This document shows, piece by piece, positions 3,058 to 64,000 of a DNA stretch of 64,000 nt (within the stretch, counting starts at the first letter, position 1; each line of letters opens with the position of its first letter). The DNA lies in the sequence record NC_070870.1. One strand, given 5' to 3'. Origin of the DNA: Escherichia phage phi G17. Under the pieces are notes generated by a model. That model had not been told where the DNA came from and did no database searches. It worked only from the letters and a program-made list of their open reading frames with translations. Position numbers and translations under genes: made by a program.

Positions 3058-5328
3058 ATGGAACACCAAGACACTTTTAAGCCTTTACCAGACCCGGCTC
3101 AATCAGAGAAGCTAACAGACTGGGCGAAGGAACCAAGTATCCAATTACTGAAGGGTGATTTGGAATCTGCTAAACCTGCTCATGATGCCATTATGACACA
3201 GATTCGTGAGTGGAATGACTTGATGGAAATCAAGGGTAAGGCTAAACCCCCAAAGGTTAAGGGACGTTCGCAAGTCCAACCTAGACTGGTTCGTCGTCAG
3301 GCAGAGTGGCGATATGCACCATTATCTGAACCTTTCCTCTCATCTAGTAAACTCTTTAAGTTAACCCCGGTTACTTTTGAAGATGAGTTAGCTGCACGAC
3401 AGAATGAATTAGTTCTTAACTACCAATTCCGTACGCAACTTAATAAAGTAAAACTGGTGGATGATTACGTACACAGTGTCGTAGATGACGGTACTGGAAT
3501 TGCTCGTATTGGTTGGGAACGTAAGACTGTTAAGATTAAAACAGAAACACCAGTCTTCCAGTTGTATCCAATTGAGAACCAGGAACAGGCAGATGTTCTT
3601 CAACAGGCTTTACAACTTCAGGCAGAGAACCCTCGCGAGTATGATGAAACTATGCCAGAAGATATTAAAGAAGCTGTTAACTACTTTAATGAAACTGGAG
3701 AAGCTACCTATGCAATCCAGACAGGGGTTACTGAGGTAGAAGTAGAGAAGGCACTGGTTAACAGACCTACTGTTGAAATGCTTAATCCCAATAACGTAGT
3801 TATTGACCCAAGCTGTAATGGTGATTTGGATAAAGCTCTGTATGCAGTTATCTCGTTTGAGACATGCAAAGCAGACCTCATGAAGAACAAAGACCGTTAT
3901 CACAACTTAGATAAGATTGACTGGGAAAGTTCTAGTCCTATGACTGACCCAGACCATGAAAGTAAAACTCCAAGTGACTTCCAGTTTAAGGATTCACTTC
4001 GTAAGAAAGTGGTTGCCTACGAGTACTGGGGATTCTACGACATCAATGATGATGGTTCGCTGGAACCAATTGTTGCTACCTGGATTGGTTCCACTCTTAT
4101 TCGTATGGAGAAGAACCCTTTCCCTGACGGTAAGTTACCTTTGGTAGTTGTTCCATACATGCCACGTAAACGTGAACTCTTTGGCGAAGCTGATGCTGAA
4201 CTGTTAGGAGATAACCAAGCTATTCTTGGTGCAACTATGCGAGGGATGATTGACCTGTTGGGTCGAAGTGCAAATGGGCAACGTGGTTATCCTAAAGGGA
4301 TGTTGGATACATTGAACCGTCGTCGATATGACGATGGGCAAGACTATGAATACAACCCAATGCAGGGTAATCCTAGTCAGTCCATTATGGAACATAAGTT
4401 CCCTGAGCTACCACAGTCGGCAATAGTAATGACCCAGATGCAAAACCAGGAAGCAGAATCACTAACTGGTGTTAAAGCATTCTCCGGTGGTGTAACTGGT
4501 TCAGCTTATGGAGATGTGGCTGCCGGTATTCGTGGTGCACTTGATGCAGCATCTAAACGTGAGATGGCAATCCTTCGTCGATTGGCTAAAGGTATGGCAG
4601 ACATTGGTACTAAGATTTGTGCAATGAATGCTGTGTTCTTATCCGAGAAGGAAGTAGTACGTATTACTAACGAGCAGTATGTAGAGATTAACCGTGAAGA
4701 CCTTAAAGGTAACTTCGACATCGAGGTTGATATTAACACTGCTGAAATTGATAACCAGAAATCCCAGGACTTGGGCTTCATGGTTCAAACGTTAGGTAAC
4801 ACAGTTGACCAAAGTATTACGTTATCTCTCGTAGCTAAGATTGCAGAACTTAAACGTATGCCTGACCTTGCACATGAGTTACGTACTTGGCAACCACAAC
4901 CAGACCCTATGGAAGAACAACTTAAGCAATTGGCAATTCAGAAAGCACAGCTTGAGAACGAAGAGTTGCAAAGTAAGATTGCACTCAATATGGCTAAGGC
5001 TAAAGAGGCTGCTTCTGCTGGTGACCTTAAGGACCTGGATTATCTGGAACAAGAATCTGGTACTAAACATGCTCGTGATATGGAGAAACAAAAAGCACAA
5101 TCTCAAGGAAACCAGAACCTTCAGATAACTAAGGCATTGACAACACCTACCAAAGAAGGTGAAACTACCCCCAACATATCTGCTGCTGTTGGATATAACA
5201 CTTTGACTAATGGGAACTCTCCGCAAGAACGTGACCTAGCTGCTCAGCAAGACCCAGCTTATTCACTTGGTTCCCAATACTATGACCCTAGTCAAGACCC
5301 ATCATCGGCTCTTGGCATGAACCTGTAA
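3058..5328 (+). CDS. portal protein (N4 gp59-like)
   Basis: 756 aa, size and position (after lysis genes, before scaffold/capsid) match the N4 portal as recalled; acidic C-terminus. Confidence 0.65.
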
Positions 5329-20900: not shown

Positions 20901-23900
20901 CTGTTACGTGTAGGTGCTGAGCAGATTGAACGTAACCTGCGTAACATTGCTCTGGGTGTAGATATTCGCCACAAAGTAATGAACCAGGTACAGACCACTG
21001 TTGACCAGATGGCTGCTGTAGGTGCTCCTTATGTGAACAACGGTAAAATCTCTCTGGAAGGTCTGACGGTAGACCAGCAAGTAGCTAAGCTGAACGAACT
21101 GTTTGATGCTGAATTAAACAAGCGTCGTGATGCAGTACGTGCTGCTAAAGCAGAACCAGTGAAAGAAGTACCGGCAATGGAACAAGTTGGTCGTGTGCTT
21201 AAGTCAGGTGTACGTCTGCTGTCCAATACTGCCATTACTAAACTGGCTAAAGAGATGTCCCCAGAACAGCAAGCAGTATTGAAAGAAGTACAGAACTCCC
21301 TTGCTGCTAAAGACTACAAGGTTGTTTATGGTACTCCTGCTCAACTGGATGCTTATGCTATTGAGAAGAACATTACTCGCCCAGCACCGGAAGATATTGA
21401 AGCTGCTGAAGCAGGTAATGCATACGGCTGGACTAACTTTGATGATAAGACTATCTACTTAGTTACCCCTTCCTTAGAGACTCTGGTTCATGAATTGGTA
21501 CATGCTTCTACTTTTGAATCTGTACTGGCTCACTACGAGGGTACTCCTAATGAAGCAGTCCAGAATATTGAAGACTTGATGAACCAGTTCCGTGCTCTGG
21601 ATGTTAAGGATGAATCCCCGGCAGTACGTGAAGCATATGCTGATGCACTCAATACCATTAACGGTCACTTGTCTAATGGTTTCATTGAGCCAGCAATGTC
21701 TAAAGCTGCTGCACTGAATGAGTACATGGCATGGGGCTTAACCAACCGTGAACTGATTGGTAAGCAGAAGAAGACCACTGCACTGAAAGCTATGGTTCAG
21801 TCTGTGTATGAAGCAATTAAGCGTCTGGTATTTGGTCGTAAGAAAGCACCTGTTAATGCAGATGATATGTTCTCTGGCTTACTGTTTAACTCATCTGTAG
21901 TTATGCGTGGACAGGCTCCTACTGCTGCTGTATCCAAGGACACTACCTTGTTCCATAGCAAAGCATATGGTGACAATACTCGTCTGGAAGAGTTAGGGCA
22001 GACCTTTGATAAGCTGATTACTAACTACATTGGTTCTGAACCAGTACAGCAAGTAATCCGTAAAGGTAAGTTTTCTGATGCAGTAGTGAATGCAACTAAA
22101 GTAACCCGTGATGTTCAGGCTCATGGCTTTACTATGAATATGCAGGAACAGCGACTGTTCACTAATATTGTTGCTGCTTTGGCTACTGAAGCTGCTATTA
22201 GTCCGGCTGCTCTTTCTCGTGCACAGGAATATTATGCACATGTTACTAAGAATCTGACTGTTGAAGCATTCATGACAGACCCGGATAGTACTAACCCTGC
22301 TGACCGTTATTATGCACAGCAGAAGTTCGATACCATCATGGGTGCTAATAATATTGAGTATGATGCACAGGGTCGTTCTTCCTTACTGCCTACCTTTGTG
22401 GCTCTGGCAATGGTAAGTGAAGATGTACGTAATGTACTGGCTGACATTCCTGTTATGAAAGCAGATAAGCAATCCGGTAATACCGTTGATGCAATGCTGA
22501 CTAACATTGGTACTGCTGCAATGGCTAGCCTGAATGCTCGTGTAGCAGGTGACACTAAAGCTACTAACGTACAGGAAGGTATGGATGCACTGGCTCAGAC
22601 AATCATGCAGACTAGTCTTAATGCACAGTCATTCTATGATTCCATTGCTACCCCTAGTGGTAATGCTATCGACCGTGCTAACCAGTATCTGGTGGACTCT
22701 ATTGATGTACTGTCCACCCGTGCTTTAGATGGTGCACGTGAGGTTGCAGCTAATACCAAGAATCCGTTGGTTAAGGGTGCTGCTCATGCTGCTCAACTGG
22801 TAGCTGCCATTGCTACAGAGAAGAATGGTGCAATCGTAGCTGAAGGTGTTATGGCTGCAATGAACCAGGGTAAAGCATGGCAACCTTTCCATGACCTGGT
22901 TAATGACTTAACCGGTCGTACTAAGAGCAATGCTTCTGTGTATGATTTAATTAAAGCAGTTCGTGCACAGGTACAGGCTGACCGTCAACAGTTCCGTGAA
23001 CATCTGCCTACCACTATCGCATCTAAGTTCAGCCGTAAGCTGACCAATGATGAATGGAAAGCAATGCACACTGGTATGGGTAAAACTGATTTGGCTGTTC
23101 TGCGTGACACTATGTCTCTGGCTGAAATCCGTGACTTGCTGACTGACCAGAAGATTGTTGACCGTGAAGTGAATAAGCTGGAAGCAGATTTGCAGAAGCA
23201 AGCTGGTCGTAACTGGCCCCTGATTAATCGTAAATCTAAGCAACTGGCTCAGTACATGATTAACGGTACAGTCGGTAATAACCTGCTGCGTAATGCTACT
23301 GCAATCTCCCGTATGCTGGGTGAACGTCAGGCTGCTCGCTCTACCGTAGATGTAGCTCAACTGGATAAACTGATTACTCTGTATGCACTGGAAGCAATGA
23401 ACAAGAAAGACCGTGAGATGTTATCTTCACTGGCTCAATCAGAAGTTGATGGAATGGACTTTGTTACTTCTTATCTGGTTGGTCAGCGTAAAGATGAAAT
23501 GGCTAAAGCCAAATCTGATATGCGTGCAACCCTGAACCAGTACAAAGGGCATATCCCTAGCGAGAACAAACAGGGTGTTAATCTGATTGTTGCTGAAGAT
23601 AGTCAGTTTGCTGATTTGATTGAGAAGTCTTATGTACGTCTGGGTACTTATCAGGGTAGCTCTGCTAACCGTGGTCCGGCACGTAGCTACTACTTCGCAC
23701 CAGTACAGGCACAGGCTCCATTCTCACAGGGTATCCTACAGAACGTTCGTAATACTGCTGGTGGTGTAGACCTCGGCACAGGTTTTACGATGGGTTCAAT
23801 GGTGGCTGGTCGTATTACTGACAAGCCTTCTGTAGACCGTATTACTAAAGCACTGGCTCGTGGTGAGCGTGGTAATGAACCACTGCTGCCTGTATATGAT

Positions 23901-25292
23901 GACAAAGGTAATGTGGTTGCCTATGAGCAATCAATTGACCCTAACATGCTGAAGCACATTGAAGGCGAGAATCACCTTGCCCGTGCAATCGGTGTATGGC
24001 GTGGTCGTCAGGTTGAAGAAGCTAAGGCACAGCGTTTCAACGATATGCTGATTGAGAACCTGCATAGCATGTACGAGAACGACATTAAAATGTCTGCCTC
24101 TAATAAGTCCCAGTACGTGAACCTTCTTGGTTCTAAACTGGACCCAGTAACTGCTGATGCGCTTAAGCTGATGAACAGTGAAACTCGTCAGAAAGCAGAG
24201 AGCCTGTTTGGTGAGGGCGAACTATGGGTACGTCGTGACATGCTGAATGATGCACTAGGTTATCGTGCAGCTTCAGTTGGTGATGCATGGTCTGGTAACT
24301 CTCGTTGGTCCCCGGAAACTCTGGATACCTTCAAGAAAGCTATGCTGGGTGTATTCGGCAACCGTGCTTATAAGTACACAATGGGTGGAGAGAACCTGGT
24401 TCAGAACTTAGTTAAAGAAGCCAAGACTCTGATTGTAGTTAAGTCAGTAGTCGTACCTGCTGTTAACTTCTTGGCCAACCTTTACCAGATGGTTGCTCGT
24501 GGTGTACCGGTTAAGAACATTGCTAAGAGCATTCCACAGAAAACTGCTGAGATTAACCAGTACCTGAAATCTCGTCTGCGTCAGGTGGATGCAGAAGCAG
24601 AATTACGTGCAGCTACTAACCCGAACCAGATTCGTAAACTTAAGGCTGAGATTCAGTCCATCTCTGATAGCCATAAGCGTATGAGTATCTGGCCCCTGTT
24701 GGAAGCTGGTGAGTTCTCTTCAATTGCAGATGCTGGTATTGGTCGTGATGACATCCTGATTACTGAGGGTAAGATTCACGAATACATGGATAAGCTGGCT
24801 GATAAGTTGCCCAAGTCTGTACGTACTGCTGGTCGTTATGCACTTATCACTAAGGATACTGCTCTGTTCCAGGGCATCCAGAAGACGGTTGAGTACTCTG
24901 ACTTTATTGCTAAAGCAATCATCTACGATGAACTGACCCAGCGTAAAGGTAAGACTCGTGAAGAGGCACTTGGTCGTGTAACGGAAGAGTTCGTTAACTA
25001 TGACCGTCTGCCTGGTCGCTTCCGTGGATATATGGAAAGCGTTGGTTTAATGTGGTTCTACAACTTTAAGATTCGTTCTGCAAAAGTTGCAGTATCCATG
25101 ATTCGTAATAACCCAGTACATGCAGCAATGGCTATGTTGGCTCCAACTCCTACCATGTTTGGTAATGTTGGCTTACCTATTCAGGACAACATCTTCAGCA
25201 TTGCAGCACAGGGTAACATGGGTTACTCGTGGGGCTTTGGTCAGGGACTTCGTGCTCACAACCTTAACCCTTGGCTGAACTTAACTAACTAA
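14922..25292 (+). CDS. virion-encapsidated RNA polymerase (giant vRNAP, N4 gp50-like)
   Basis: Single uninterrupted 3456-aa ORF; N4 vRNAP is about 3500 aa and is the last gene of the late strand, as here; internal K-x-P-x-T-x-x-YG segment (KNPLTITIYGSG) resembles T7-like motif B. Confidence 0.85.
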   Translation: MNRKHAMSTFDRLAGFADSITNAKQVDVSTATSQKQAAQGQSPFQLTPENAYNLQTGRVGNLGTGAFEPGSLQADFTQASPLEIINKYGNEQGLQILNSRANAADVVRQDLSKQRTNAEAFGDTLSGVGLGVANTLGGIAALGTGLVNDNAGASIASGMDWLNEGVRNLQSDALNANRNVVQNQNQITAQENQKLYEQDIKNGENDLVASLSRIGRDAFDSVANTLDNGMAASDGLSEGIGSLFTGGPLIRGVSALGKVMVGGDKAVKGITLAAELGSRPAQVALSAGRVAAPAVAIGGMEAGGAYQQTASEIMKMSHQELASKSPVYQQHIADGLSPDEARRQTASETGITAAGLTAPVAAATGPLVSRFELNPLKVGSLAGAGSNMLRETVEEGIQSGFGQFAQNTAIKENVDASRDTLKGVGEQAGLGALYGFGSAGVAQAPGATVKAAGAAVAPAVRTTLAGASLVGNALAKAASPITNILVQRGEEVAKRNEQASPVADATVSAAAQEATAQSEQAQATVQEAVDAMDITPEEKAAATQYASDLTQAMNFDPVEIEQANPAIREAVSGSTNRVEAIQKMADLVNTAEDPNVQMEAAIQMYDNIMSMDSFINRDPGALANLEQGSPAAAIVDQFSGLMANVQNTPKVLRAFRAIHSMIQEQAEAGKLKATEEANQAQANNIAMAADVSPEVLDADSVNMVLKHASEGKITLGNRQRAALQSAAAVLQGAREFDAKAEELGLRPQDIVSKQIKTDESRSNEGQYSALQHAKRIRSAYNSGNFDLASAYLNDFMQFAQHMQNKVGALNEHLVSGNADKNKSVHYQALSPSREWVRSRTGLGVNPYDTKSVKFAQQVGLEAKTVADIANALATAYPELNVSHVNVTSLDSRLDKPAAQVVKEFRQGGLDATQSQQTNEPVNQVDETPAPVQETAPTVQPKAEPVVENKPAPTKDTSSKTEEVSTTKSETVDATLTNEDTTQEVAETKTEMESVFPVYNNEKTPNQFLKAFTLPEEPKSRTIGSESPLTDVKQALSSAARFEAFTQKENNALTGDVMKRYQDLMDFGETLKTTLSDRLAKFLANKNVGKRFAEGTEANRWVGGKLLNIVEQDGDTFKFNNQLLETAVLAGLQWRLTATQNAAVKDMKDVAAITGVEASLLPEGILAEFENAQTLVEATNSLAQKIESYWGLNRNANAPLGYTKGIPMAMATEILSSLIEMGEVKESMLDVSEIDPASNKTVGLYTIEKLDDNDAINKFPTAIEEAVLLEPEEKMYFGDDIPSVAQTQLRNPAVKNTPEQKAALKAEQATEFRVHMPMVNFYEAMGRENILELMGAGTLNPELLNVNTAKSLEGKNLSVSMAYDSLFGVISQVREQEAGLDTPIHYGYNMTRVGRMQMLGKNNPQSSKLVREAILPTFSTIDLSNENSQTFSDFQLGLAQALGIKVHNMSREAMSEKLTKALEGNLKPAVDMMVEFDKSGHLPTDAVDILKTSLGGDKSFVALMALMEYARYLNSDDRANFNTPLYVEADGVTNGPINAMVLMTGGKFTPDWIKNTAKGGLFFDKAGKTMNEHRSQDDSVDLYEASTNGLQQALNELRTTYRNNVPVMNQMNHLQKIMDLFIKDFNLNEDGTLDLKRGIAKNPLTITIYGSGARGIAGKMVSAITDTIYERFSDVLQARAADPSISPAMAMFGKEAASEADAQAMLDTFLTSMEALTGNVPVMRKGELSIQQAEGALTGKLDPQKFTVSGNALKNLQENMLHLFVEPMRTGIQNTVGEGLMHSTENLQKATQIQSLVLQDMFQQAVQAKLAEKENDPTWKKGDFLTQKELNEIQESLSPLAPMIETGSQTFYIAGSENTDVANQVLATNLDDRMRVPMSIYAPSQAGVAGIPFMTIGTGDGMMMQTLSTMKGAPKNTLKIFDGMNIGINDITDASRKANEAVYTSWQGNPIKNVYDSYAKFMKNVDFSKLSDETKQAIAKSALEYDQREGATDDLLRVGAEQIERNLRNIALGVDIRHKVMNQVQTTVDQMAAVGAPYVNNGKISLEGLTVDQQVAKLNELFDAELNKRRDAVRAAKAEPVKEVPAMEQVGRVLKSGVRLLSNTAITKLAKEMSPEQQAVLKEVQNSLAAKDYKVVYGTPAQLDAYAIEKNITRPAPEDIEAAEAGNAYGWTNFDDKTIYLVTPSLETLVHELVHASTFESVLAHYEGTPNEAVQNIEDLMNQFRALDVKDESPAVREAYADALNTINGHLSNGFIEPAMSKAAALNEYMAWGLTNRELIGKQKKTTALKAMVQSVYEAIKRLVFGRKKAPVNADDMFSGLLFNSSVVMRGQAPTAAVSKDTTLFHSKAYGDNTRLEELGQTFDKLITNYIGSEPVQQVIRKGKFSDAVVNATKVTRDVQAHGFTMNMQEQRLFTNIVAALATEAAISPAALSRAQEYYAHVTKNLTVEAFMTDPDSTNPADRYYAQQKFDTIMGANNIEYDAQGRSSLLPTFVALAMVSEDVRNVLADIPVMKADKQSGNTVDAMLTNIGTAAMASLNARVAGDTKATNVQEGMDALAQTIMQTSLNAQSFYDSIATPSGNAIDRANQYLVDSIDVLSTRALDGAREVAANTKNPLVKGAAHAAQLVAAIATEKNGAIVAEGVMAAMNQGKAWQPFHDLVNDLTGRTKSNASVYDLIKAVRAQVQADRQQFREHLPTTIASKFSRKLTNDEWKAMHTGMGKTDLAVLRDTMSLAEIRDLLTDQKIVDREVNKLEADLQKQAGRNWPLINRKSKQLAQYMINGTVGNNLLRNATAISRMLGERQAARSTVDVAQLDKLITLYALEAMNKKDREMLSSLAQSEVDGMDFVTSYLVGQRKDEMAKAKSDMRATLNQYKGHIPSENKQGVNLIVAEDSQFADLIEKSYVRLGTYQGSSANRGPARSYYFAPVQAQAPFSQGILQNVRNTAGGVDLGTGFTMGSMVAGRITDKPSVDRITKALARGERGNEPLLPVYDDKGNVVAYEQSIDPNMLKHIEGENHLARAIGVWRGRQVEEAKAQRFNDMLIENLHSMYENDIKMSASNKSQYVNLLGSKLDPVTADALKLMNSETRQKAESLFGEGELWVRRDMLNDALGYRAASVGDAWSGNSRWSPETLDTFKKAMLGVFGNRAYKYTMGGENLVQNLVKEAKTLIVVKSVVVPAVNFLANLYQMVARGVPVKNIAKSIPQKTAEINQYLKSRLRQVDAEAELRAATNPNQIRKLKAEIQSISDSHKRMSIWPLLEAGEFSSIADAGIGRDDILITEGKIHEYMDKLADKLPKSVRTAGRYALITKDTALFQGIQKTVEYSDFIAKAIIYDELTQRKGKTREEALGRVTEEFVNYDRLPGRFRGYMESVGLMWFYNFKIRSAKVAVSMIRNNPVHAAMAMLAPTPTMFGNVGLPIQDNIFSIAAQGNMGYSWGFGQGLRAHNLNPWLNLTN

Positions 25293-54129: not shown

Positions 54130-55347
54130 TTAGCTAAGGGCATAATCGGTCTCCAGAATGTCTTGCCAGAGGCTGTCATCCAGCTTACCAGCAGAGAACT
54201 CTTGTCCCAGTACCTGAGACAGAATGAAGCCTAGCAAGTCACTCTTAGCAATGTCAGACAGAATCTGATTGTACTGACGACGCAAGTCATTGCCATAGTT
54301 AGGATGGCAACGGAAGCAGTCATGTACGGTCATTACAGGGAATGATTTCTTAGGCATGGTATTGAGCATAGCCATGATTACATCCGTATCAACCAATGCA
54401 ATTGTTTCTGAATCCAGGTAGTCAAAGATACGAGTAGACAGGAAGCCTGACTTCTCATAGCTAGCCCACAGTGTGTTAACCATTTCATAGTTATCATCAG
54501 AACCAACCATGTAATCACTAGTTCCTTCACAGAGTGACTTAACATAGCTCACCTGGTTCATGTCGAAGTTACAACGACGCAGCATCTCACGTACCACCAT
54601 CCCATCAATAGAGTGGGTGATGTTAGCAGAGAGCATACGAGTCTTCTCTTCAGTACCCTGAACCATACGAGTGATGTCGAATGGTTTACCTAAGAAGTTA
54701 ACAGTCTGTACTTCAGGAACCATGACCTTAATGACAGCATGATAGTTGTCAGGCAGTACCCATACGTATCGGTTAGCATCCGGGTTACCACATTGCAGTA
54801 AGAACTTGTTCAATGCCCAAGGCCCACTAGCAACAGTTTCCATTACATTCTCAAAAGTCTTGAGACGGATACCTTCTCCGAATACTTCTTTAGGCTTAGC
54901 TTCTGAGCCATAGAACGCAGTCATAACTGCCTGCTTAGTGTCACTACGTTTGATGCGAGATGCTTCGCCAAGGATATCCAGCATCTTGTGGTAGATAACT
55001 GTATAAGCATCACGGCGTAATGGCTTACCATTTTCTCCCATGTAGTTAACTACGTTACACAGTTCGGCAGCAGAACGATCACCAGTCAGACAGGCTAATA
55101 ACTGTAAGCCAGATGATGTAGCATCCAGAGCTACGGTATAGCCAATAGGCTTACCTGCTTTCATATCTTTCCATGCGTTTACACCTGCATAGAACAGTGC
55201 AGATTCTTCAGCCTCATCTACCAGATTAAGCAGATTAGCTTCATTCTCATCGAACCAGCTAATACGTTCATCCCATGTCTTCTTATCTAAGCCATAGTTG
55301 TTAGCAATATCTACTTTCAGGTATTCACGGGCAGTTAACAGTTGCAT
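54130..55347 (-). CDS. T7-like single-subunit RNA polymerase, catalytic subunit (N4 RNAP II gp16-like)
   Basis: ALDATSSGLQ (motif A, cf. T7 FDGSCSGIQH), RSDTKQAVMTAFYGS (motif B), MTVHDCF (motif C); 405 aa. Confidence 0.8.
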   Translation of the reverse strand: MQLLTAREYLKVDIANNYGLDKKTWDERISWFDENEANLLNLVDEAEESALFYAGVNAWKDMKAGKPIGYTVALDATSSGLQLLACLTGDRSAAELCNVVNYMGENGKPLRRDAYTVIYHKMLDILGEASRIKRSDTKQAVMTAFYGSEAKPKEVFGEGIRLKTFENVMETVASGPWALNKFLLQCGNPDANRYVWVLPDNYHAVIKVMVPEVQTVNFLGKPFDITRMVQGTEEKTRMLSANITHSIDGMVVREMLRRCNFDMNQVSYVKSLCEGTSDYMVGSDDNYEMVNTLWASYEKSGFLSTRIFDYLDSETIALVDTDVIMAMLNTMPKKSFPVMTVHDCFRCHPNYGNDLRRQYNQILSDIAKSDLLGFILSQVLGQEFSAGKLDDSLWQDILETDYALS

Positions 55348-55402
55348 TTTATGTTCCTTAGCGTCTTGAGCCTATTGGCTCGCATAGTGGATTAATAAGT
55401 GG

Positions 55403-56221
55403 TTAGTCTTCGTTTACTAATTCTTTATCAGCGAACTCCAGTACAGCTTTGTTGTAACTGGTTCCTTGATAGTTGATGTGATAGCCCTGAGCGTAAGTAC
55501 GCCCACGTTTATCGAATTTGTGACCTAGTGAGAAGTTATTACCCTCTTGGGTCACTAACTCCATTACTTCCTTAGCAGTACGGCTGTACTTCTCAAAGGC
55601 TTTGACACGTTTCTCATAGTCCTGACGGGTTTCACCCTCTTTAGGTTTATCCATGTTAGGACGGGAGTCTTTTACATAGTTAGCAACGTCCCAGTTAATA
55701 CAGAGACGTTGGTTGTTCATACGGTTGATGTGGTCAAGACAGACATCCATCTCATGATGGTTCTTCTTGAGGATGATTGAGCCTTTGGACTCATAGTAAC
55801 CAGTATCCCGGTTAGTCAGGACAGGCTTAGGTTTACTTACGATAGGCAATGGATACTGGAATGCCTCCAGTTCCATCTGAACATCTTCACTAATCTCATA
55901 GATAACACCGAACTTGTCGATGGTAGGGTCATAGTTGAAGCAGTCATTCTCTGCCATCTTATACAGACAGTCAGCGATATACTGAGCATCATCTGAGTGA
56001 CTCATGAGAGAGCCAATCATAGTCTGAATGTCAGCACGTTTATGTAGGGCAATCTGCACCATTGCATCAATGAGCAGCTTATAATCAATTTCCAGGTAGG
56101 CAGCGAATGCCTTAAAGTCAATTTCTTTGGATTCCTCGAACTCTTTCCTCATGCGAGGCAAAAGTTGATTCTTATTAAATAGTTTTTCGAGGGTTTTCTG
56201 GTGCTCAATGGATGCGTACAT
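55403..56221 (-). CDS. RNA polymerase II small subunit (N4 gp15-like, N-terminal T7-RNAP-like part)
   Basis: 272 aa ORF immediately upstream of the catalytic subunit; size matches N4 gp15 as recalled. Confidence 0.5.
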   Translation of the reverse strand: MYASIEHQKTLEKLFNKNQLLPRMRKEFEESKEIDFKAFAAYLEIDYKLLIDAMVQIALHKRADIQTMIGSLMSHSDDAQYIADCLYKMAENDCFNYDPTIDKFGVIYEISEDVQMELEAFQYPLPIVSKPKPVLTNRDTGYYESKGSIILKKNHHEMDVCLDHINRMNNQRLCINWDVANYVKDSRPNMDKPKEGETRQDYEKRVKAFEKYSRTAKEVMELVTQEGNNFSLGHKFDKRGRTYAQGYHINYQGTSYNKAVLEFADKELVNED

Positions 56222-56271
56222 AGCTTCTTTCCTTTAATGAGTTAATTACCACAAGGTGCGGAGCACCCTTC

Positions 56272-56619
56272 TTATGACCAGTAGTTGTAATCGTCACCTA
56301 AGTACGGTTTCCATTGTTCAGGGAGCAGTACATTACCGGTGACATTAATGAATTGATGTGGAAGTAGGTCTTCCGAGATTGCTACTTTGAAATCCCATTG
56401 AGGATTCATAGAGGCATAAGCAATAAATCCATTAATGAATTTCTGCACATCCTCTTGGTTCAATAAACCATCACGACCTTGCGTAGGAATAGCAAAGCTA
56501 TTTCCGTATTGACCATAGGCCATACCCCAACGAGCACCATGCTTCTTATAAGCCAGCTTGGCTGAGTCAGATGAGTGCTGGCCCATAAAGTTAGATGTGA
56601 ATACGAATATCTCTTTCAT
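56272..56619 (-). CDS. hypothetical protein
   Basis: 115 aa ORF. Confidence 0.4.
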   Translation of the reverse strand: MKEIFVFTSNFMGQHSSDSAKLAYKKHGARWGMAYGQYGNSFAIPTQGRDGLLNQEDVQKFINGFIAYASMNPQWDFKVAISEDLLPHQFINVTGNVLLPEQWKPYLGDDYNYWS

Positions 56620-56623
56620 GTTA

Positions 56624-56944
56624 TTAACCCTTTGGTTTAAGTACTTGGAATGCGAATACAGGACGTTTACTACGCCATTGGTTCATAGCTAGTTCACTGG
56701 TATGTGAGCCGTCATGTAAGTCGTATATGAATGTAATCATATATTCTGGTTCTTCTGGGAAGTTCTCTGTAGAGAATGGAAGACCAGCTTCCTTTAATAC
56801 AGGAACCAGTGGTGATTCAGCTACGCAGTAGATAATGAACTCTTCACTGAATGCTTTACTACTCTGAGATACGTAATCAATATTACGCATCATCTTATCG
56901 ACATCAGTAAATGTATTATCATGTACTACTACAATGCTATTCAT
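56624..56944 (-). CDS. hypothetical protein
   Basis: 106 aa ORF. Confidence 0.4.
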   Translation of the reverse strand: MNSIVVVHDNTFTDVDKMMRNIDYVSQSSKAFSEEFIIYCVAESPLVPVLKEAGLPFSTENFPEEPEYMITFIYDLHDGSHTSELAMNQWRSKRPVFAFQVLKPKG

Positions 56945-57198
56945 ACTTTCTCCAGTGTACTGTAGATTGAATCTTTAGTGGGTTTATAGTGCGTATTAAG
57001 CCCTATATCTTCTTGCTTACCTTTCTTACTAACCCATATTCCATGGTCAGTTAGTTTAGGTTTATGACTGAATCCAATTAAGGTTGAACTCTTAGTAAAT
57101 GTATTTGGAAGCAAAGCAATGTAATTAACCCATAAAGGGACATCGACAGTGCTTCCCATATATTCAACCATCTTGTGAGTAGGATAGGTAATAATCAC
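56941..57198 (-). CDS. hypothetical protein
   Basis: 85 aa ORF, overlapping start/stop with neighbours. Confidence 0.35.
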   Translation of the reverse strand: MIITYPTHKMVEYMGSTVDVPLWVNYIALLPNTFTKSSTLIGFSHKPKLTDHGIWVSKKGKQEDIGLNTHYKPTKDSIYSTLEKV

Positions 57199-57416
57199 TT
57201 CTGGTATCCTTGTATATAGTTAATACGACGAATACGTTGAGTAGATGCCTTAACAGCCATCTGTTGATTCTCTTCTTTGTGCTGATTTTCCAGCACCTTA
57301 GCCCATTCTTCCTGGTTCCGTTGTTTCTGTAATATACGACTACAACGTTTATGATTGGCAACTCCACGTCCTTTCTTACAGACTGGGCAAATACCATAAT
57401 CGCTTGTGTACATCAT
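57195..57416 (-). CDS. small Cys-containing protein (possible zinc ribbon)
   Basis: 73 aa; CPVC plus downstream Cys, basic. Confidence 0.35.
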   Translation of the reverse strand: MMYTSDYGICPVCKKGRGVANHKRCSRILQKQRNQEEWAKVLENQHKEENQQMAVKASTQRIRRINYIQGYQK

Positions 57417-57721
57417 TGGCTTAAAGCCTCCATTAATATTTTACGAATAACGTTAACATCAGATTCAGTACCAATTAAACCAACAGGTTTCTTAGTACCA
57501 TCAGTGACAAAGGATGCAATCCTTTCCATCTCTGCTGTAATTAATTTGTCACCACTAATAAGACGATTACGAAGGTAAGCTTCATAAGCTACCTCTACAT
57601 CTTCTACCGTGGTTCTTTCATTACGAGTGAATGGATTACTTAATGGGAAGGGTAAATGTACCCGTATATTCCTGTCAGCTACCTTAGCTAGGTGAGGAAG
57701 TATACATACTATTTCATTCAA
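57413..57721 (-). CDS. hypothetical protein
   Basis: 102 aa ORF. Confidence 0.4.
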   Translation of the reverse strand: MNEIVCILPHLAKVADRNIRVHLPFPLSNPFTRNERTTVEDVEVAYEAYLRNRLISGDKLITAEMERIASFVTDGTKKPVGLIGTESDVNVIRKILMEALSQ

Positions 57722-57761
57722 GGTTCTTTCTCCTATTTAAATACATATCTAACTATTCAAA

Positions 57762-57797
57762 AATAAAAAATAGGAGCCTCCTATTGGAGGACTCCTA
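57762..57797 (-). terminator. rho-independent terminator (minus orientation)
   Basis: TAGGAGCCTCC-TATT-GGAGGACTCCTA stem; A-run on plus strand. Confidence 0.55.
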
Positions 57798-57854
57798 GTT
57801 CTACTAATGCACCATAGGTTAACAGTGCACACATAATTAATGTTATAGGCCAAT

Positions 57855-58067
57855 TCATATAAATGGGTATAGGTAGTTGACTACACAATAATATACGAAC
57901 CATAAACCATAGCCTATGCTCAATCCCTTAGTTAATGCAGTAACATAACCAAATATTGCAAAACCTCTGGCATCATTATTAGTAACAAAGGTTTTAGTGA
58001 TATTACCAGCTGCATTAGTGAGCCAAACGTTCAGGTATAGTAATACTATAAAGATTATAAAGTACAT
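57855..58067 (-). CDS. small membrane protein
   Basis: 70 aa, two hydrophobic helices. Confidence 0.35.
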   Translation of the reverse strand: MYFIIFIVLLYLNVWLTNAAGNITKTFVTNNDARGFAIFGYVTALTKGLSIGYGLWFVYYCVVNYLYPFI

Positions 58068-58363
58068 TATTAATTTCCTAAGATTGGATGATTGAAGGTA
58101 ACAATCTTACGTACTGGTTCAGTTGTCTGTTGCTTAGCAGCCAGACGCTCTTTCATCTTTTGTACGTCAGCTTTGGTTCCCATGATTAATGACTTACGCA
58201 TGTTTGGTACTCCACATAAAGTTAAAAGGTTTATTGTTACGTACAATTCTTACAGCCATTTGATGACCATTGATTTGCACAACACCATAGTGTCGTTTCT
58301 GGTCACCAGTGTGATATCTACGATAGATACACTCTTCAATGGCATCCTCAATGTTAGTGAACA

Positions 58364-58606
58364 TCACTGGTTCCTCTTTGCATAGTCTTCTGCTTCTTTA
58401 GCCCAGAGTTGCTTACGAACTTCTTTGGCTATGATGGAAGCAAACAGACACTTAACGAATACAACTGGTAACTTAACAATGAGGATAGTCTTAGTGACTA
58501 CCCACTTAACTAATTTCAGTGCAATGAATCTCACTCGGTAAGCCACATAGAAGATGAACAACCATGTAGCAACAGAGATTAAATAGCCTAATTCGTATAC
58601 AGACAT
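58364..58606 (-). CDS. small membrane protein
   Basis: 80 aa, hydrophobic N-terminal helices, basic C-terminus. Confidence 0.35.
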   Translation of the reverse strand: MSVYELGYLISVATWLFIFYVAYRVRFIALKLVKWVVTKTILIVKLPVVFVKCLFASIIAKEVRKQLWAKEAEDYAKRNQ

Positions 58607-58710
58607 AGTACATATCCTCTTCTAATATAAATCTATATCTAACTGGTTACTGTTTCAGTACCCTTCGTCTAAAGATACTCAAAAAGTAGAAATAGCTTAT
58701 CGCATAGTTA

Positions 58711-58739
58711 AAAATAAAAGGACTACCCGAAGGTAGTCC
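58711..58739 (-). terminator. rho-independent terminator (minus orientation)
   Basis: GGACTACC-TTCG-GGTAGTCC on minus strand followed by TTTTATTTTT. Confidence 0.7.
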
Positions 58740-58748
58740 AGTTGTTGA

Positions 58749-59132
58749 TTAGAAAGTCAGTTTACGAGCATATTTATTCTCGTCTGCTGGGATGTCAGCA
58801 GCCTCTGCTTTCACACGACGAAGTTGAACTTGCAGGTTAATGATACCTTCTTCACCTGGTTCCAGGTTCTGAGCATATTCGATTAACTGTTCCAGCAAAT
58901 CGTTCTGTGCACAACGCATAGCACGGAAGTCAGCATTGCTGCTGTTAGTAGGCAGTGCTTCCTGAGTATCCAGTGGAATACCAGTAGGCAGAGAGATGAA
59001 CTTCTCTTCTTCAGAGCCTTCGTTAGCAACATAACCAATGTTCAACCAGAACTGAGCCTTAGGCTTAGCAGCTTTAGTTTCAGTGGTAGCAGCAGCGTTA
59101 GATTGACCGAAAGTGAATTTTTGAATAGACAT
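58749..59132 (-). CDS. early protein, unknown function
   Basis: Start set to internal ATG ([11 protein letters not shown]) with SD GGAGAG 8 nt upstream; first ORF downstream of candidate hairpin promoter at 59243-59257. Confidence 0.45.
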
Positions 59133-59242
59133 TTTGTACTCTCCAGATAAATGATTGTTTGATTTATGGGTTTGTCTGTCGGTGACTAAACCCAAGAAAA
59201 GACTTAAGATTTCAATGATTAGTGGATTCACATGAATCCTTT

Positions 59243-59257
59243 AGACGCGGAGCGTCT
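59243..59257 (-). promoter_or_regulatory. candidate virion-RNAP hairpin promoter
   Basis: Plus (template) strand A-GACGC-GGA-GCGTC-T: 5-6 bp stem, 3-nt purine loop; shares GCGGAGC core with hairpin at 60013-60027. Confidence 0.45.
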
Positions 59258-59262
59258 GGTTT

Positions 59263-59556
59263 TTAAGACAAGCGTTTAAGCAACTCTGCTCTAGCAGATT
59301 CGTAGTCAGAACTATTCTGTCTTACTGCATCTTCGAAGCGAGCCAGTAGTTCTTCCTTATCAGGACCAACAAGTTCTTCCCATTGCCATACATAACCAGT
59401 TAATGGAACAAGTTCTCCTTTCTGGAAGTAAGGATATTGTCCAAGTAGAACAGTAGAATCTTTAGTGAGAACTATCGTTTCTCCACTAAGTTCTCCTTCA
59501 ATAATTGTTCCAACAGGAAGTTCAGAATTGCCTTTGATACAACGGAATTTAGTCAT
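59263..59556 (-). CDS. hypothetical early protein
   Basis: 97 aa ORF. Confidence 0.4.
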   Translation of the reverse strand: MTKFRCIKGNSELPVGTIIEGELSGETIVLTKDSTVLLGQYPYFQKGELVPLTGYVWQWEELVGPDKEELLARFEDAVRQNSSDYESARAELLKRLS

Positions 59557-59610
59557 GATTTTCTATCCTTAAAGTAGATAAATATCTACTTAGACTATCT
59601 ATCTAATCTT

Positions 59611-59638
59611 TATAAAAGGAGACTCCGAAGAGCCTCCT
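59611..59638 (-). terminator. rho-independent terminator (minus orientation)
   Basis: AGGAGGCTC-TTCG-GAGTCTCCT on minus strand followed by TTTTATA. Confidence 0.6.
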
Positions 59639-59646
59639 ATATTGAT

Positions 59647-59970
59647 TTAGTCTTTAGTCAGGATGTCGATTACTTTTGAATATTCTGCGTTATAGATACG
59701 AGCGTTCTCAGAATCTTTGCAGAATTCTTCGATACTTTTCTTACGCAGAGTTTCGTTCATAGCTGTTTCTTCAGCTAATTTGTTTACGAATGTATGCATT
59801 TCTAATTTAGTACGGATGGCTTGTTTCTCAGCCATAGTAGATACATATGAGTTAAGCATACCAACTGCTTTAGTAGCTGTGCCGAATGTATCAGCAACAG
59901 TAGTAGCAGCAGAGTTAACAGTACCAAGTAAAGTTCCTGCGGTCATACGTACAGTAGCGGTAGTAGTCAT
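59647..59970 (-). CDS. hypothetical early protein
   Basis: 107 aa ORF; first ORF downstream of candidate hairpin promoter at 60013-60027. Confidence 0.4.
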   Translation of the reverse strand: MTTTATVRMTAGTLLGTVNSAATTVADTFGTATKAVGMLNSYVSTMAEKQAIRTKLEMHTFVNKLAEETAMNETLRKKSIEEFCKDSENARIYNAEYSKVIDILTKD

Positions 59971-60012
59971 GATGATAGCTCCAAGGTTAGATGATAGGAC
60001 GACATGTCCATA

Positions 60013-60027
60013 ACATGCGGAGCATGT
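60013..60027 (-). promoter_or_regulatory. candidate virion-RNAP hairpin promoter
   Basis: Plus (template) strand A-CATGC-GGA-GCATG-T: 5-6 bp stem, GGA loop; same GCGGAGC core as 59243-59257 with covarying outer stem. Confidence 0.45.
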
Positions 60028-60175
60028 GTAACGTGTAAGGTGGGGTAGGGCAGTGGCTACACGGTCAACATACCGGGGGGGATGGTTGAGTGTAAGGGTG
60101 TAGCCCCAGCCACACCACTACAGCTATACATAGCTATCAATATTTTGATATGCAAAAATATCATAGCTATCTCAC

Positions 60176-60463
60176 TTATAAGCAGTTAAATAGGAGGTGA
60201 GGGGTTTGGTAGCTATCTGTATTCACATGCCACGGGGAGGACATGCTTCCCTCCCACGGGAGTACCTTTCCTGGTTCAAGTACCCTTACTATAAGTTTCT
60301 TACCTGCTATCAGTGCCAAGCCTTGTAACTCATGAAGGGTATCTTCATCGGGGACCAGAACCAGTGTGGCTTTAGCTAGCTTTAGATCTTGGAAGTCTAT
60401 CTGTCTTTTTACAGAGTCGGGTCTATACCCTTTAAGAGGAATACGCGTGATAATCATAGTCAT
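60176..60463 (-). CDS. hypothetical early protein
   Basis: 95 aa ORF. Confidence 0.35.
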   Translation of the reverse strand: MTMIITRIPLKGYRPDSVKRQIDFQDLKLAKATLVLVPDEDTLHELQGLALIAGKKLIVRVLEPGKVLPWEGSMSSPWHVNTDSYQTPHLLFNCL

Positions 60464-60822
60464 ACGCCGTAGTCTATCTTAACCAATCTGCCTTTGTAGT
60501 AGCCAAAGTTCTTGGGAAAGGCATCATATTCGTAGAACTCTCTGGATAACTCACAAGAGTGGTATAGGGATTCTAACTCACACCAGAATAACCCCTCATT
60601 GTTAACTTTACTGGCTCTAGCCATGACAACCAGTAGGCCAAATCTATTCGAGTAATGGATTGGACATAGATGCTTGTCTGGGTAATCTTTCCATTGACCC
60701 TCTGTAAGGTTGCTAAGCATACCCTGTACAAAGGTCTTCCATGTCTTGGGGATAGGGAACTTAATAGCATACTTACGTGTTAATAGTACCCATCTGGTTC
60801 CACCTGATTTAATCAGTCTCAT
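60460..60822 (-). CDS. hypothetical early protein
   Basis: 120 aa ORF. Confidence 0.4.
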   Translation of the reverse strand: MRLIKSGGTRWVLLTRKYAIKFPIPKTWKTFVQGMLSNLTEGQWKDYPDKHLCPIHYSNRFGLLVVMARASKVNNEGLFWCELESLYHSCELSREFYEYDAFPKNFGYYKGRLVKIDYGV

Positions 60823-61026
60823 GGTTTTAGTAACCTCAGTATAAGTTTAAACATTACCAGTTCTATAAGATGGTGCTTTGGTGATTATACGGATAGTTCT
60901 GAAGGAGTTACCTTCTCTTACCGTACCGGTCGGAAGTACACGGTAACTTTATTCCGGGACATTAAACCCCAGCGTGGGTTGAATATTTCCTGGGTAGATA
61001 CCCCTCCTTCAAACATCATGAATAGT

Positions 61027-61341
61027 TTAAGGTTCATACTTCAGTACCTGATTAAGAAGACTATCCATGTAATAGCAGTATGCCTCGGAGGATTCGTCAT
61101 TAATAGGAAGACCAATTAAGCCAAAGGTGTATATGCAGAAGTGATTGAGTTCATGAACCAAGGTGATAGGGTCATTATCTTTTGCATAGATGAGTACCGA
61201 ACCATTAGGGAGTAGTGAGGTTATACCTTTGCTTCCATCCTCTGGTTCAATGCCTTTAGCCTTCTTATATTTCTTAGAGAAGGTAGACCAGTCATGTACT
61301 ACTTCTAACTGTACTGGATAGGGGGATGTGTTTAGTTTCAT
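61027..61341 (-). CDS. hypothetical early protein
   Basis: 104 aa ORF. Confidence 0.4.
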   Translation of the reverse strand: MKLNTSPYPVQLEVVHDWSTFSKKYKKAKGIEPEDGSKGITSLLPNGSVLIYAKDNDPITLVHELNHFCIYTFGLIGLPINDESSEAYCYYMDSLLNQVLKYEP

Positions 61342-61661
61342 TAGATACTCTCGTCGCTAGATAAATATGAGGTAGAAGGATAAAGGGTAATCAGTCTACC
61401 GGTAAGGGTAGTAGCTACCATAGGTTCACAAGTAGATAGGATGTATACACCTTTATTCTTAGGTACTTCGACAGGGGTATCTATCTTAATAAAAGTAACT
61501 GGTATACCTAACATTAAGCATGTACCAAGGAATTCATCAGCTTCTTGACTAGGTTCATACAGGACTGTAGTAGTCTTAGCCTTACCGTTGTACCAATCCT
61601 GCTTTGTTATGCTGGATAGATAGCAACTATCACTGTAGTTAGCTAAACAATAGAAGTGCAT
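61341..61661 (-). CDS. hypothetical early protein
   Basis: 106 aa ORF abutting neighbours. Confidence 0.4.
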   Translation of the reverse strand: MHFYCLANYSDSCYLSSITKQDWYNGKAKTTTVLYEPSQEADEFLGTCLMLGIPVTFIKIDTPVEVPKNKGVYILSTCEPMVATTLTGRLITLYPSTSYLSSDESI

Positions 61662-61664
61662 AGC

Positions 61665-61979
61665 TTACTTCCTTACATAGTAGTAACGGTATTCGTCATT
61701 CTCATAACGACTATCCCATTGGTATTCATCAGATACCAGCATGTATGGGATAGGATCATTAGCACTGTGGTTTGTATAGACGGAAGGGGGAACAAGACAT
61801 ACAACCTTACGGTCATTACTTGCCAAGAAGAGTTGACCCCTTACTTCATGGTAATCCTCTAAGGTAGGAACCAGGATTACTTGATGTGGGTTACTGTTCA
61901 TGACCTCTTCTAAAGTGAAGTCAGTTGTGTACATAGACACCCTTTCAGCAAAACTGGGGATGGTCATTATAAATTTCAT
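61665..61979 (-). CDS. hypothetical early protein
   Basis: 104 aa ORF. Confidence 0.4.
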   Translation of the reverse strand: MKFIMTIPSFAERVSMYTTDFTLEEVMNSNPHQVILVPTLEDYHEVRGQLFLASNDRKVVCLVPPSVYTNHSANDPIPYMLVSDEYQWDSRYENDEYRYYYVRK

Positions 61980-62343
61980 GATTGGTTCTCCTTCCTTTAG
62001 GAAGAGGTCTGAAGTAAATGGAAAGTGTTTTATTAAAGACGTTATGGTCAGCTATCAATTCCCAACCGTCTATCTTATAGAAGCGTACACCGGGGAAGAA
62101 CTCATTGAATCCTATATAGCGGGTAAGGTCATACACCTTTGGTTCAGTAAGTATCTCAGTGTTAAGCTGAAGGTTGTATAAGAAAAGAGAACCAATAACC
62201 TCATGGGACTCTTCGCAGTCAGGTAAGAATACTGATTGCCATGGAGCAATGAACTTACTTACTGCTTCTGGTTCCCCAAGGTAATAGGGTTCCTGCTTAT
62301 GAAGTACTCCAGTAATATCAATATCAAAACAGTAGATGCTCAT
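61945..62343 (-). CDS. hypothetical early protein
   Basis: 132 aa ORF. Confidence 0.4.
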   Translation of the reverse strand: MSIYCFDIDITGVLHKQEPYYLGEPEAVSKFIAPWQSVFLPDCEESHEVIGSLFLYNLQLNTEILTEPKVYDLTRYIGFNEFFPGVRFYKIDGWELIADHNVFNKTLSIYFRPLPKGRRTNHEIYNDHPQFC

Positions 62344-62358
62344 AATTGCATACCTCCA

Positions 62359-62395
62359 GAAAAAGAAATGGGGTAGAGCCTCTCGACTCTACCCC
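62359..62395 (-). terminator. rho-independent terminator (minus orientation)
   Basis: GGGGTAGAG / CTCTACCCC 9-bp stem; on minus strand followed by ATTTCTTTTTCT. Confidence 0.6.
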
Positions 62396-62545
62396 TTACC
62401 GTTTTCAATCACGGGTCAGTTCATCCCCCTAGGTACTTATGTACCGTTAGACCAACTGGGTTGGCAAAGGAGCCGGGGAACCCTGACTGTAGAAGTTATT
62501 AACTCTTTACGAGTACCGCCACTGTCTACTAGGCGGTATGACTAA

Positions 62546-62863
62546 TCACATCGTCACCGTCATCCGAACGCTATCGTTGCTTCGTTTGATGGAGACACTA
62601 TGAGGTAATTTTGTGAAGAACACAAGAGATGAAACAGACTTTTCTAAAGAGTAAGTTTCTTGTGGTTCTAAGATGGTAACACCGGGACGATTCTCTAATA
62701 ACATCATTCCAGATAACTCATGGAAAGAATCCCAGTCATGGGTAACAACTATGTCACCCTTCATTAAGCCAGCCTTGGTGTGGCTTACTTCAAAGTATTT
62801 GTCTCCGGAGTCTTGGACTCTCATAAAGATTCTCAAGGGGTACTCCTTGGGGAATAAGGTCAT
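62546..62863 (-). CDS. hypothetical early protein
   Basis: 105 aa ORF, rightmost minus-strand gene. Confidence 0.4.
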   Translation of the reverse strand: MTLFPKEYPLRIFMRVQDSGDKYFEVSHTKAGLMKGDIVVTHDWDSFHELSGMMLLENRPGVTILEPQETYSLEKSVSSLVFFTKLPHSVSIKRSNDSVRMTVTM

Positions 62864-63006
62864 CGGAACATTACATACTATTTAGTATCATGAACTTTTT
62901 CTATATCATGACTAAAGTGTAACTGTGTGGTAGAGTTTCTTCAAGGGGTATCTCACCCCAAGAAAAGAATCTTCGTTAATAGACATAACTTTGTAGAGAG
63001 ATAAGT

Positions 63007-63696
63007 ATGAGTGAACTAACTAAGCAGCAGATTGTTAATGCCTTACCTGCTAACTTCAAGAACAGTGTGAGCCAAGAGTTGGTAGACACGATTAACAACG
63101 TAACCCAGGACCAATTGGTTGCTGAGGCATTTCGTGAAAACTTCATCTCTTACTCTGGTGTCATGAAGGAAGGCAAGTTTAAGACACAGGACTACATGAA
63201 TGCAGTTCAGTATGTAACTTACAAACACATGGGCTACTCGAATAAGGAAGCCTACTTCAAGACATTCCCCAACCGACAAGCAGAACTAGTAGCACGAGGA
63301 ACCAGTGAGAAAGATATTAGTGCTTACGTATCTGCTTATCACAGAGGTAAGTTAGTTAACCTAATCATGGAACAAAGTTTGGTTCCAGTGTGGATTGTGA
63401 ACCAAGACAATTATCAGAAGGCAATCAACGTACAGGTTGAACTAATGAATACGGCTGTTAGTGAGAAGGTTCGTTGCGATGCAGCTAACTCTATCCTTAC
63501 TCACTTAGCTAAACCAAAAGATCAGGTAACGAATATCAATCTGGACTTGAGAGAGAACTCCGGGTTGACTGACCTCAAGGCAACACTTGCTGCATTGGCT
63601 GAACAGCAAATTAGTGCAATCAATAGTGGTGTACCTACTAAAGAGATTGCTGGTTCTAAACTCGTACGTGCAGATGAGGACATTACAGATGTCTGA
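63007..63696 (+). CDS. hypothetical protein preceding terminase (possible small terminase subunit)
   Basis: 229 aa ORF whose stop overlaps the ATG of the next ORF (ATGTCTGA); position only. Confidence 0.3.
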   Translation: MSELTKQQIVNALPANFKNSVSQELVDTINNVTQDQLVAEAFRENFISYSGVMKEGKFKTQDYMNAVQYVTYKHMGYSNKEAYFKTFPNRQAELVARGTSEKDISAYVSAYHRGKLVNLIMEQSLVPVWIVNQDNYQKAINVQVELMNTAVSEKVRCDAANSILTHLAKPKDQVTNINLDLRENSGLTDLKATLAALAEQQISAINSGVPTKEIAGSKLVRADEDITDV

Positions 63697-64000
63697 GTTA
63701 ATTAAACAGGAACTAGATGAATGGCTAGACCAGGTGGATTACTCCCACCTTAATTCTTCTAACTATGTTCCTAGTCAGTTTGCTCTTACCTTTGCCAACT
63801 TCATTAAGTTGGTTAATGGCAAAGAGGGCGAATCAAACAAAACACCTCCAGTTCACCTGAAGATGTTGGATAAGATGATTAGCCCTAACCAGTATGTAGT
63901 TAACCTGTGTTTCCGTGGTGCAGGTAAGACTGCTGTATTCATGGAATACTTTACTCTGTTCCTGGCAGTGTTTGGTCACTTACCTAGTTTGGGTAAAGTA
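63689..64000 (+). CDS. probable terminase large subunit, N-terminal part (ORF runs off window end)
   Basis: Open frame from ATG 63689 to window end; FRGAGKT Walker-A-like motif; location at head of late strand. Confidence 0.4.
   Translation, partial: MSELIKQELDEWLDQVDYSHLNSSNYVPSQFALTFANFIKLVNGKEGESNKTPPVHLKMLDKMISPNQYVVNLCFRGAGKTAVFMEYFTLFLAVFGHLPSLGKV

Follow-up and report, generated by a model that had tools for sequence, protein, structure and literature searches.

The window, that is, the whole 64-kb stretch of DNA that was analysed, carries at 60013-60027 a short perfect inverted repeat that on the plus strand reads A CATGC GGA GCATG T; its six base pairs (stem ACATGC/GCATGT) run from A60013-T60027 through C60018-G60022 and leave G60019, G60020 and A60021 as a three-nucleotide loop. 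Since all neighboring genes, like all plausible genes in the 55-64 kb region, lie on the minus strand, the plus strand is the template strand here, in agreement with the original prediction, which had called a stem of 5-6 bp with a GGA loop on the template strand. The same prediction had placed the hairpin 40-50 nt upstream of the ORF 59647-59970; the hairpin does lie upstream of this ORF, but the measured distance to the ATG at 59970 is 43-57 nt.

The ORF 59647-59970 (minus strand, 107 aa) is the orthologue of gp1 of phage N4 (66% identity, E 8e-50) and is predicted to be served by the hairpin at 60013-60027 (plus strand), a P1-type early promoter hairpin orthologous to N4 nt 90-102. It is followed by a terminator-like hairpin at 59612-59637 (minus strand; GGAGGCUC-UUCG-GAGUCUCC and then UUUUAU), a feature that is also present after N4 gp1. 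A second candidate promoter hairpin, the orthologue of N4 P2, is found at 59243-59257 (plus strand; AGACGC/GCGTCT, loop GGA, predicted +1 at C59239) and precedes the gp2 orthologue (58749-59231, minus strand; 160 aa, 67% identity to N4 gp2, E 1e-81), whose GUG start falls at predicted +9. Behind gp2 there is another terminator-like hairpin at 58710-58739 (minus strand; GGACUACC-UUCG-GGUAGUCC and then UUUUAUUUUU), and the corresponding site in PhAPEC7 is annotated as a terminator. The third candidate, the orthologue of N4 P3, occupies 56255-56267 (plus strand; GGTGC/GCACC, loop GGA, predicted +1 at C56250) and would serve the gp15 orthologue (55403-56221, minus strand; 272 aa, 66% identity to N4 gp15, E 1.5e-138), the small subunit of RNAP II, which is annotated as RNAP1 in relatives. 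The presumed reader of these hairpins, the virion RNA polymerase (vRNAP), is encoded at 14940-25292 on the plus strand, within an ORF of 3456 aa.

Between the gp1 terminator and the P2-type hairpin lies an ORF of 97 aa (59263-59556, minus strand) at a place where N4 has no gene. This ORF has no hairpin promoter of its own, and directly upstream of it there is a 9-bp palindrome, AAGTAGATA-aa-TATCTACTT (59573-59592). In the same interval, several related loci (L003, L010/L011, L013 and the KP8 locus L015) carry a fourth GCGGAGC hairpin.

Sequence and statistics of the hairpins

The heptamer GCGGAGC is found three times in the window (56258, 59247 and 60017), always on the plus strand and always within a hairpin; the earlier statement that it occurs in hairpins thus holds, but its count of only two copies does not. 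On its own the heptamer shows no enrichment (3 copies, 2.3 expected), whereas embedded in a stem of at least 5 bp it does: the window has three such hairpins, while 3000 dinucleotide-preserving shuffles average 0.09 and never reach three. All three hairpins are also accompanied by CC exactly 7 nt 5' of the heptamer, at predicted +2/+1, and adding this requirement lowers the shuffle mean to 0.006. If the core is relaxed to GCGRAGC, with 5 bp again the minimum stem, the 64 kb still yield only three hairpins, all of them on the template strand; a search for a fourth promoter of the kind described in phage KP8 came up empty, GRA loops closed by GC/GC pairs being limited in the window to these three.

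Folded as single-stranded DNA, 60013-60027 adopts the hairpin as its minimum-energy structure, with -4.7 kcal/mol. The folding z-score is modest (-1.6, with 17 of 200 shuffles folding equally well), and it was computed with nearest-neighbor parameters that omit the special stability of GCGNAGC mini-hairpins. PMC13037366 describes GCGNAGC sequences as extraordinarily stable compact DNA hairpins, and the heptamer of the window fits the pattern given there; this pattern is a structural motif rather than a functional class, and explains stability but not recognition by a polymerase. A scan of 55000-64000 against Rfam gave no match at E values up to 1.

Comparison with N4 and other phages

The definition of N4 promoters was taken from a 2015 review (PMC4496689), two structure papers of 2026 (PMC13434306 and PMC13492108) and the N4 genome itself. 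According to the review, the N4 promoters P1-P3 lie in the genome's leftmost 10% and share a GC-rich heptamer centered at -11, defined by -12A, a purine at -11, -10G, -9C and -8G; the polymerase contacts -11G, -10G, -9C and -8G, and transcription starts 8 nt downstream of -8 (PMC4496689). The genes gp1, gp2 and gp15/16 are those transcribed by N4 vRNAP (PMC13434306). When the rule derived from the window (GCGRAGC, a stem of at least 5 bp and CC 7 nt 5') was applied to the complete N4 genome (NC_008720, 70,153 bp), exactly three sites were returned (93-99, 562-568 and 4551-4557), located before gp1, gp2 and gp15, respectively. On the template strand these read GTTGC-GAA-GCAAC (nt 90-102), AAGAAGC-GGA-GCTTCTT (nt 557-573) and AAGCTGC-GGA-GCAGCTT (nt 4546-4562). 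They match both the published description of P1-P3 and the P2 oligonucleotide used for cryo-EM, which reads ...CCAAAAGAAGCGGAGCTTC... (PMC13492108), and therefore constitute a positive control for the rule. The original prediction was right that N4 P2 shares the GCGGAGC core (nt 562-568, template strand); the comparison with P1-P3, which had been suggested as a check, finds this core in both P2 and P3 and shows the heptamer at 60017-60023 to differ from that of P1 by one loop base.

As the hairpin at 60013-60027 precedes the gp1 orthologue, it is the counterpart of N4 P1 and not of P2. Both sites lie upstream of gp1, some 90 nt in from the genome's left end, between the flanks CATGTCCATAA and GTGTAACGTGTA, and both have the same geometry, with CC at +2/+1, a heptamer centered at -11 and a 3-nt purine-rich loop. 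In the alignment of P1 sites the conserved flanks are CATGTCCATAA on the side of the start site and GTGTAACGTGTAAGGTGGGGTAGG on the other side. The stem between them differs by paired substitutions, being ACATGC/GCATGT in the window, PhAPEC7 and L010 as opposed to GTTGC/GCAAC in N4, G7C and KP8. In comparison with N4 P1, the window has a loop of GGA instead of GAA and a stem of 6 instead of 5 bp, a difference that amounts to two paired substitutions and one extra pair; moreover, N4 P1 has been mapped and its structure with vRNAP solved (PMC13434306), whereas the site in the window is predicted. By transfer of the N4 geometry (PMC4496689), -11G, -10G, -9C and -8G would correspond to plus-strand positions 60020, 60019, 60018 and 60017, and the template CC at 60008-60009 (plus strand) would supply the start, with C60009 as +1, 8 nt downstream of -8G, and C60008 as +2; a CC pair is likewise found at all three N4 promoters.

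With N4 P2 and P3 the hairpin shares an identical GCGGAGC heptamer, the GGA loop and the spacing of CC-N7, but these promoters serve gp2 and gp15 rather than gp1, and their orthologues in the window are the hairpins at 59243-59257 and 56255-56267. The spacer from -4 to -1 also differs, being AAAA in N4 P2 and P3 and AATA for the hairpin at 60013-60027.

Similar hairpins are known from other phages. For Klebsiella phage KP8, four early promoters (P1-P4) have been predicted by similarity to N4 (PMC6950046, Table 1; 'early promoter' in GenBank MG922974); they have the same core (GCTCCGC on the coding strand), the same spacing to a GG at +1 and the same positions before gp1 and the RNAP genes (PMC6950046). 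KP8 has four hairpins and the window three, their stem sequences differ, and both sets are predictions. The more distant Pseudomonas phage LUZ7, which belongs to another subfamily and infects another host, also uses an N4-type vRNAP, together with hairpins on the template strand that have 4 bp of stem or more, a conserved 3-nt loop and a G start (PMC9163698); its nine early start sites lie 13-14 nt from the hairpin center according to ONT-cappable-seq, as compared with the 11 nt expected in the window (PMC9163698). The CB1-like phages of Pectobacterium are a further example of predicted N4-like promoter hairpins.

Conservation among relatives

The early-region DNA is 89-94% identical to that of the G7C-like coliphages Moonfish, IME11 and PhAPEC7 (Gamaleyavirus, Schitoviridae), and 80 phage records share the conserved P1 region, nearly all of them leaving it without annotation. 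For a closer comparison we used 18 IMG/VR loci found with the gp1 orthologue as query, which contain three to four hairpins per complete early region and 32 distinct hairpins overall. The heptamer is invariant among these except for the GAA loop of N4 P1; C at +2 is invariant as well, and 31 of the 32 have C at +1. At stem positions -6/-16 four types of pair occur and at -7/-15 three, with no unpaired case; since only stems of at least 5 bp had been admitted to the set, the inner pairs are paired by construction, and it is the variety of pair types that is informative. In these 18 loci GCGGAGC never occurs on the non-template strand, and just once on the template strand outside a hairpin, an orientation bias that argues against a symmetric binding site in duplex DNA. 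In one locus (L006) the hairpin is kept despite an unrelated upstream terminal flank.

The only exception to CC at +2/+1 among the 32, a CG, belongs to an extra GCGGAGC hairpin of phage G7C, AACGC-GGA-GCGTT, which sits directly after gp1 within the 1160-bp terminal repeat (L007 503-515 and L008 6359-6371).

The virion RNA polymerase of the window

The vRNAP ORF is listed from a TTG at 14922 to 25292; it is the ATG at 14940 that aligns with Met1 of N4 gp50 (MSTFDRLAGF...), and judging by this alignment the gene probably starts there. At the DNA level the gene is about 95% identical to the virion RNA polymerase gene of PhAPEC5, and its product shares 66% identity with N4 gp50 and 70% across the mini-vRNAP region. 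We verified the N4 residue numbering by the presence of the expected residues at an offset of 997. The residues that contact promoter bases in N4, K114, R119, W129, D901 and R904 (PMC4496689), are identical in the vRNAP of the window, as are the backbone-contacting residues K849 and K850; in the beta-intercalating hairpin K268 is kept and K267 is replaced by Asn, a difference that speaks against the promoter reading.

The genome end

Beyond the hairpin, the 85 nt from 60028 to 60112, among them seven consecutive G and an inverted repeat formed by GGCTACAC (60056-60063) and GTGTAGCC (60099-60106), show conservation with N4 nt 1-89. In many relatives, as in N4, the start of the record corresponds to 60111-60112 of the window, which places the physical left end of the genome inside the window and, in turn, indicates that the window stems from a circularly joined or permuted assembly. 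Just past this junction, TAGCTATC is repeated three times on the plus strand within 87 nt (60131-60217); there are seven copies of it in the window against 2.5 expected, the other four lying elsewhere on the minus strand.

These surroundings bear on a reading under which the palindrome would be bound as duplex DNA, or would act as a genome-end element in packaging, replication or ejection. The hairpin is indeed situated only about 90 nt from the physical left end and inside the terminal repeat, next to the conserved 85 nt, and G7C and KP8 have the site at both contig ends (L007/L008 and L015/L017). The motif is, however, also present before gp2 and gp15, both of them internal locations well away from the end, and L006 retains the hairpin in the absence of the usual terminal flank; a duplex operator, in addition, would not be expected to leave its stem free to vary while an asymmetric loop is fixed and always placed on the template strand. 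On the strength of the two internal sites and the strand-specific loop we rejected a duplex operator or terminal element as the main role, which we deem highly unlikely.

The presence of the P1 site at both ends of the G7C and KP8 contigs does imply that the promoter is placed inside the direct terminal repeat, and by analogy a copy of the P1-type hairpin presumably exists at the right end of the virion DNA too. A second role in addition to that of a promoter, be it as a docking site that couples the ejected polymerase to internalization of the leading end or in priming replication at the genome ends, is conceivable but rather doubtful; terms for the terminal repeat and the genome end had no match in the N4 structure paper PMC13434306.

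Predicted early transcripts

The transcript expected from the P1-type hairpin would begin 5'-GGACAUGUCGUCC... (extended, 5'-GGACAUGUCGUCCUAUCAUCUAACCUUGGAGCUAUCAUCAUG) and have a leader of 39 nt in which GGAG precedes the AUG of gp1 by 9 nt. That from the P2-type hairpin would begin GGAUUCAUGUG... and have a leader of just 8 nt before its GUG, and that from the P3-type hairpin would begin GGUAAUUAACUCAUUAAAGGAAAGAAGCUAUG, with a 29-nt leader that includes AAAGGAAAG before the AUG.

At the very 5' end of the predicted P2 transcript (59224-59239, minus strand), a stem-loop, GGAUUC-AUGU-GAAUCC, encloses the GUG start of gp2. The stem is kept in relatives, and its position 5 covaries with codon 2, being G-C with His CAU in six relatives and U-A with Asn AAU in three (a single covarying pair). 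The predicted P1 transcript (59997-60009, minus strand) begins with GGAC-AUGUC-GUCC, a stem that is also preserved in the variants of L019 and L006. When all predicted early transcripts were tested generically for stems at the 5' end, the results were no better than shuffles (mean 4.4 versus 4.0 bp), and a consistent stem of this kind is confined to the P1 and P2 classes, in which it might control how stable the first messages of the phage are or how they are translated.

The hairpins with UUCG tetraloops and U-runs on the minus strand after gp1 and gp2 are markedly stable (z -3.1 and -4.8, respectively) and, judging by their sequence and by their counterparts in N4 and PhAPEC7, are likely to delimit short early transcription units. 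These hairpins also help to judge whether 60013-60027 could itself work in RNA, either as a terminator or as a stem-loop at which, for example, read-through transcripts are ended or processed, instead of as a promoter in DNA. A simple scan flags 59241-59259 and 56255-56267 as terminator-like on the plus strand; yet the region has no plus-strand genes, 60013-60027 is not flagged and has a T-run on neither side, and on the strand with the sense of the mRNA a U-run is missing behind all three hairpins, while separate terminators of the UUCG type are present after gp1 and gp2. A strand-specific GGA loop with a fixed spacing to CC is, moreover, a trait of N4 promoters and not of terminators. Function at the RNA level is thus very improbable indeed, and 60013-60027 as an intrinsic terminator was rejected for being on the wrong strand and without a U-run.

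Matches to Sigma-70-like promoters are depleted about three-fold between 55 and 61 kb (5 found versus 17.0 ± 3.9 expected), which fits a region that is not read by the host polymerase early in infection.

Discussion

We estimate at about 90% the probability that in this G7C-like (Gamaleyavirus) relative of N4 the hairpin at 60013-60027 serves as the first early promoter, orthologous to N4 P1, its promoter function being assigned by orthology. The call of a virion-RNAP promoter in the original prediction is thereby upheld, to the extent that sequence comparison allows, by geometry, orthology, covariation and the conserved contact residues of the polymerase. In particular, the available evidence supports the view that the site has every sequence-level trait of an N4 virion-RNAP promoter: where such promoters have a 5-7 bp stem and a 3-nt loop on the template strand, it has 6 bp and GGA; its version of the GC-rich heptamer GCGRAGC centered at -11 is GCGGAGC at 60017-60023; it is located in the left-end early region upstream of the early genes (gp1, gp2 and gp15/16); its stem bases vary with pairing kept, as is seen in the changes at the P1 site and, with the selection for stems of at least 5 bp borne in mind, in the 32 hairpins; and a cognate vRNAP with the promoter-reading residues is encoded in the same window. 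That the hairpin might be a chance palindrome devoid of function has next to no probability, for although hairpins that combine a 3-nt loop with 5 bp of stem or more are common (123 per strand in the window), the heptamer as such is not overrepresented and the folding z-score is modest, the combination of heptamer, strand and CC spacing common to three hairpins is reached in 0 of 3000 shuffles, the site is conserved across the 80 phage records, and its stem has undergone compensatory changes between conserved flanks.

How such a promoter would operate can be outlined by homology with N4. After ejection of the DNA, negative supercoiling by host gyrase would extrude the inverted repeat as a cruciform, of which host SSB would melt the non-template arm while leaving intact the stable mini-hairpin of the template strand (C-GGA-G, with a sheared G:A pair). 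The injected vRNAP (encoded at 14940-25292) would then read two loop bases, -11G and -10G, and two stem bases, -9C and -8G; template C60009, placed 8 nt downstream of -8G, would direct a start with GTP, and transcription of gp1 (59970-59647) would run as far as the UUCG-loop terminator at 59637-59612. The sister promoters at 59243-59257 and 56255-56267 would likewise drive gp2 and gp15/gp16, and gp1, gp2 and gp15/gp16 would together supply the machinery for middle transcription. Both initiation at C60009, which for a promoter of this type would be resistant to rifampicin, and dependence on gyrase and SSB are carried over from N4 by analogy, and would apply here insofar as the two systems behave alike.

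Early promoters of the N4 type are of a textbook kind, and three to four of them are routinely predicted when an N4-like phage is newly sequenced; the one at 60013-60027 is a new, unannotated example of this known kind, expected and ordinary in its phage family. Its value is therefore mainly one of annotation, in that it places three early units (P1-gp1, P2-gp2 and P3-gp15/16), together with their predicted starts, in a Gamaleyavirus genome; GenBank entries for the genus carry no annotation of such sites. The rule that emerges (CC-N7-GCGRAGC on the template strand, with 5 bp of stem or more) has the specificity needed to annotate these promoters automatically in the N4-, G7C- and KP8-like phages sampled, and the natural variants of the stem provide a ready-made series of compensatory mutations for the model of hairpin recognition by N4 vRNAP.
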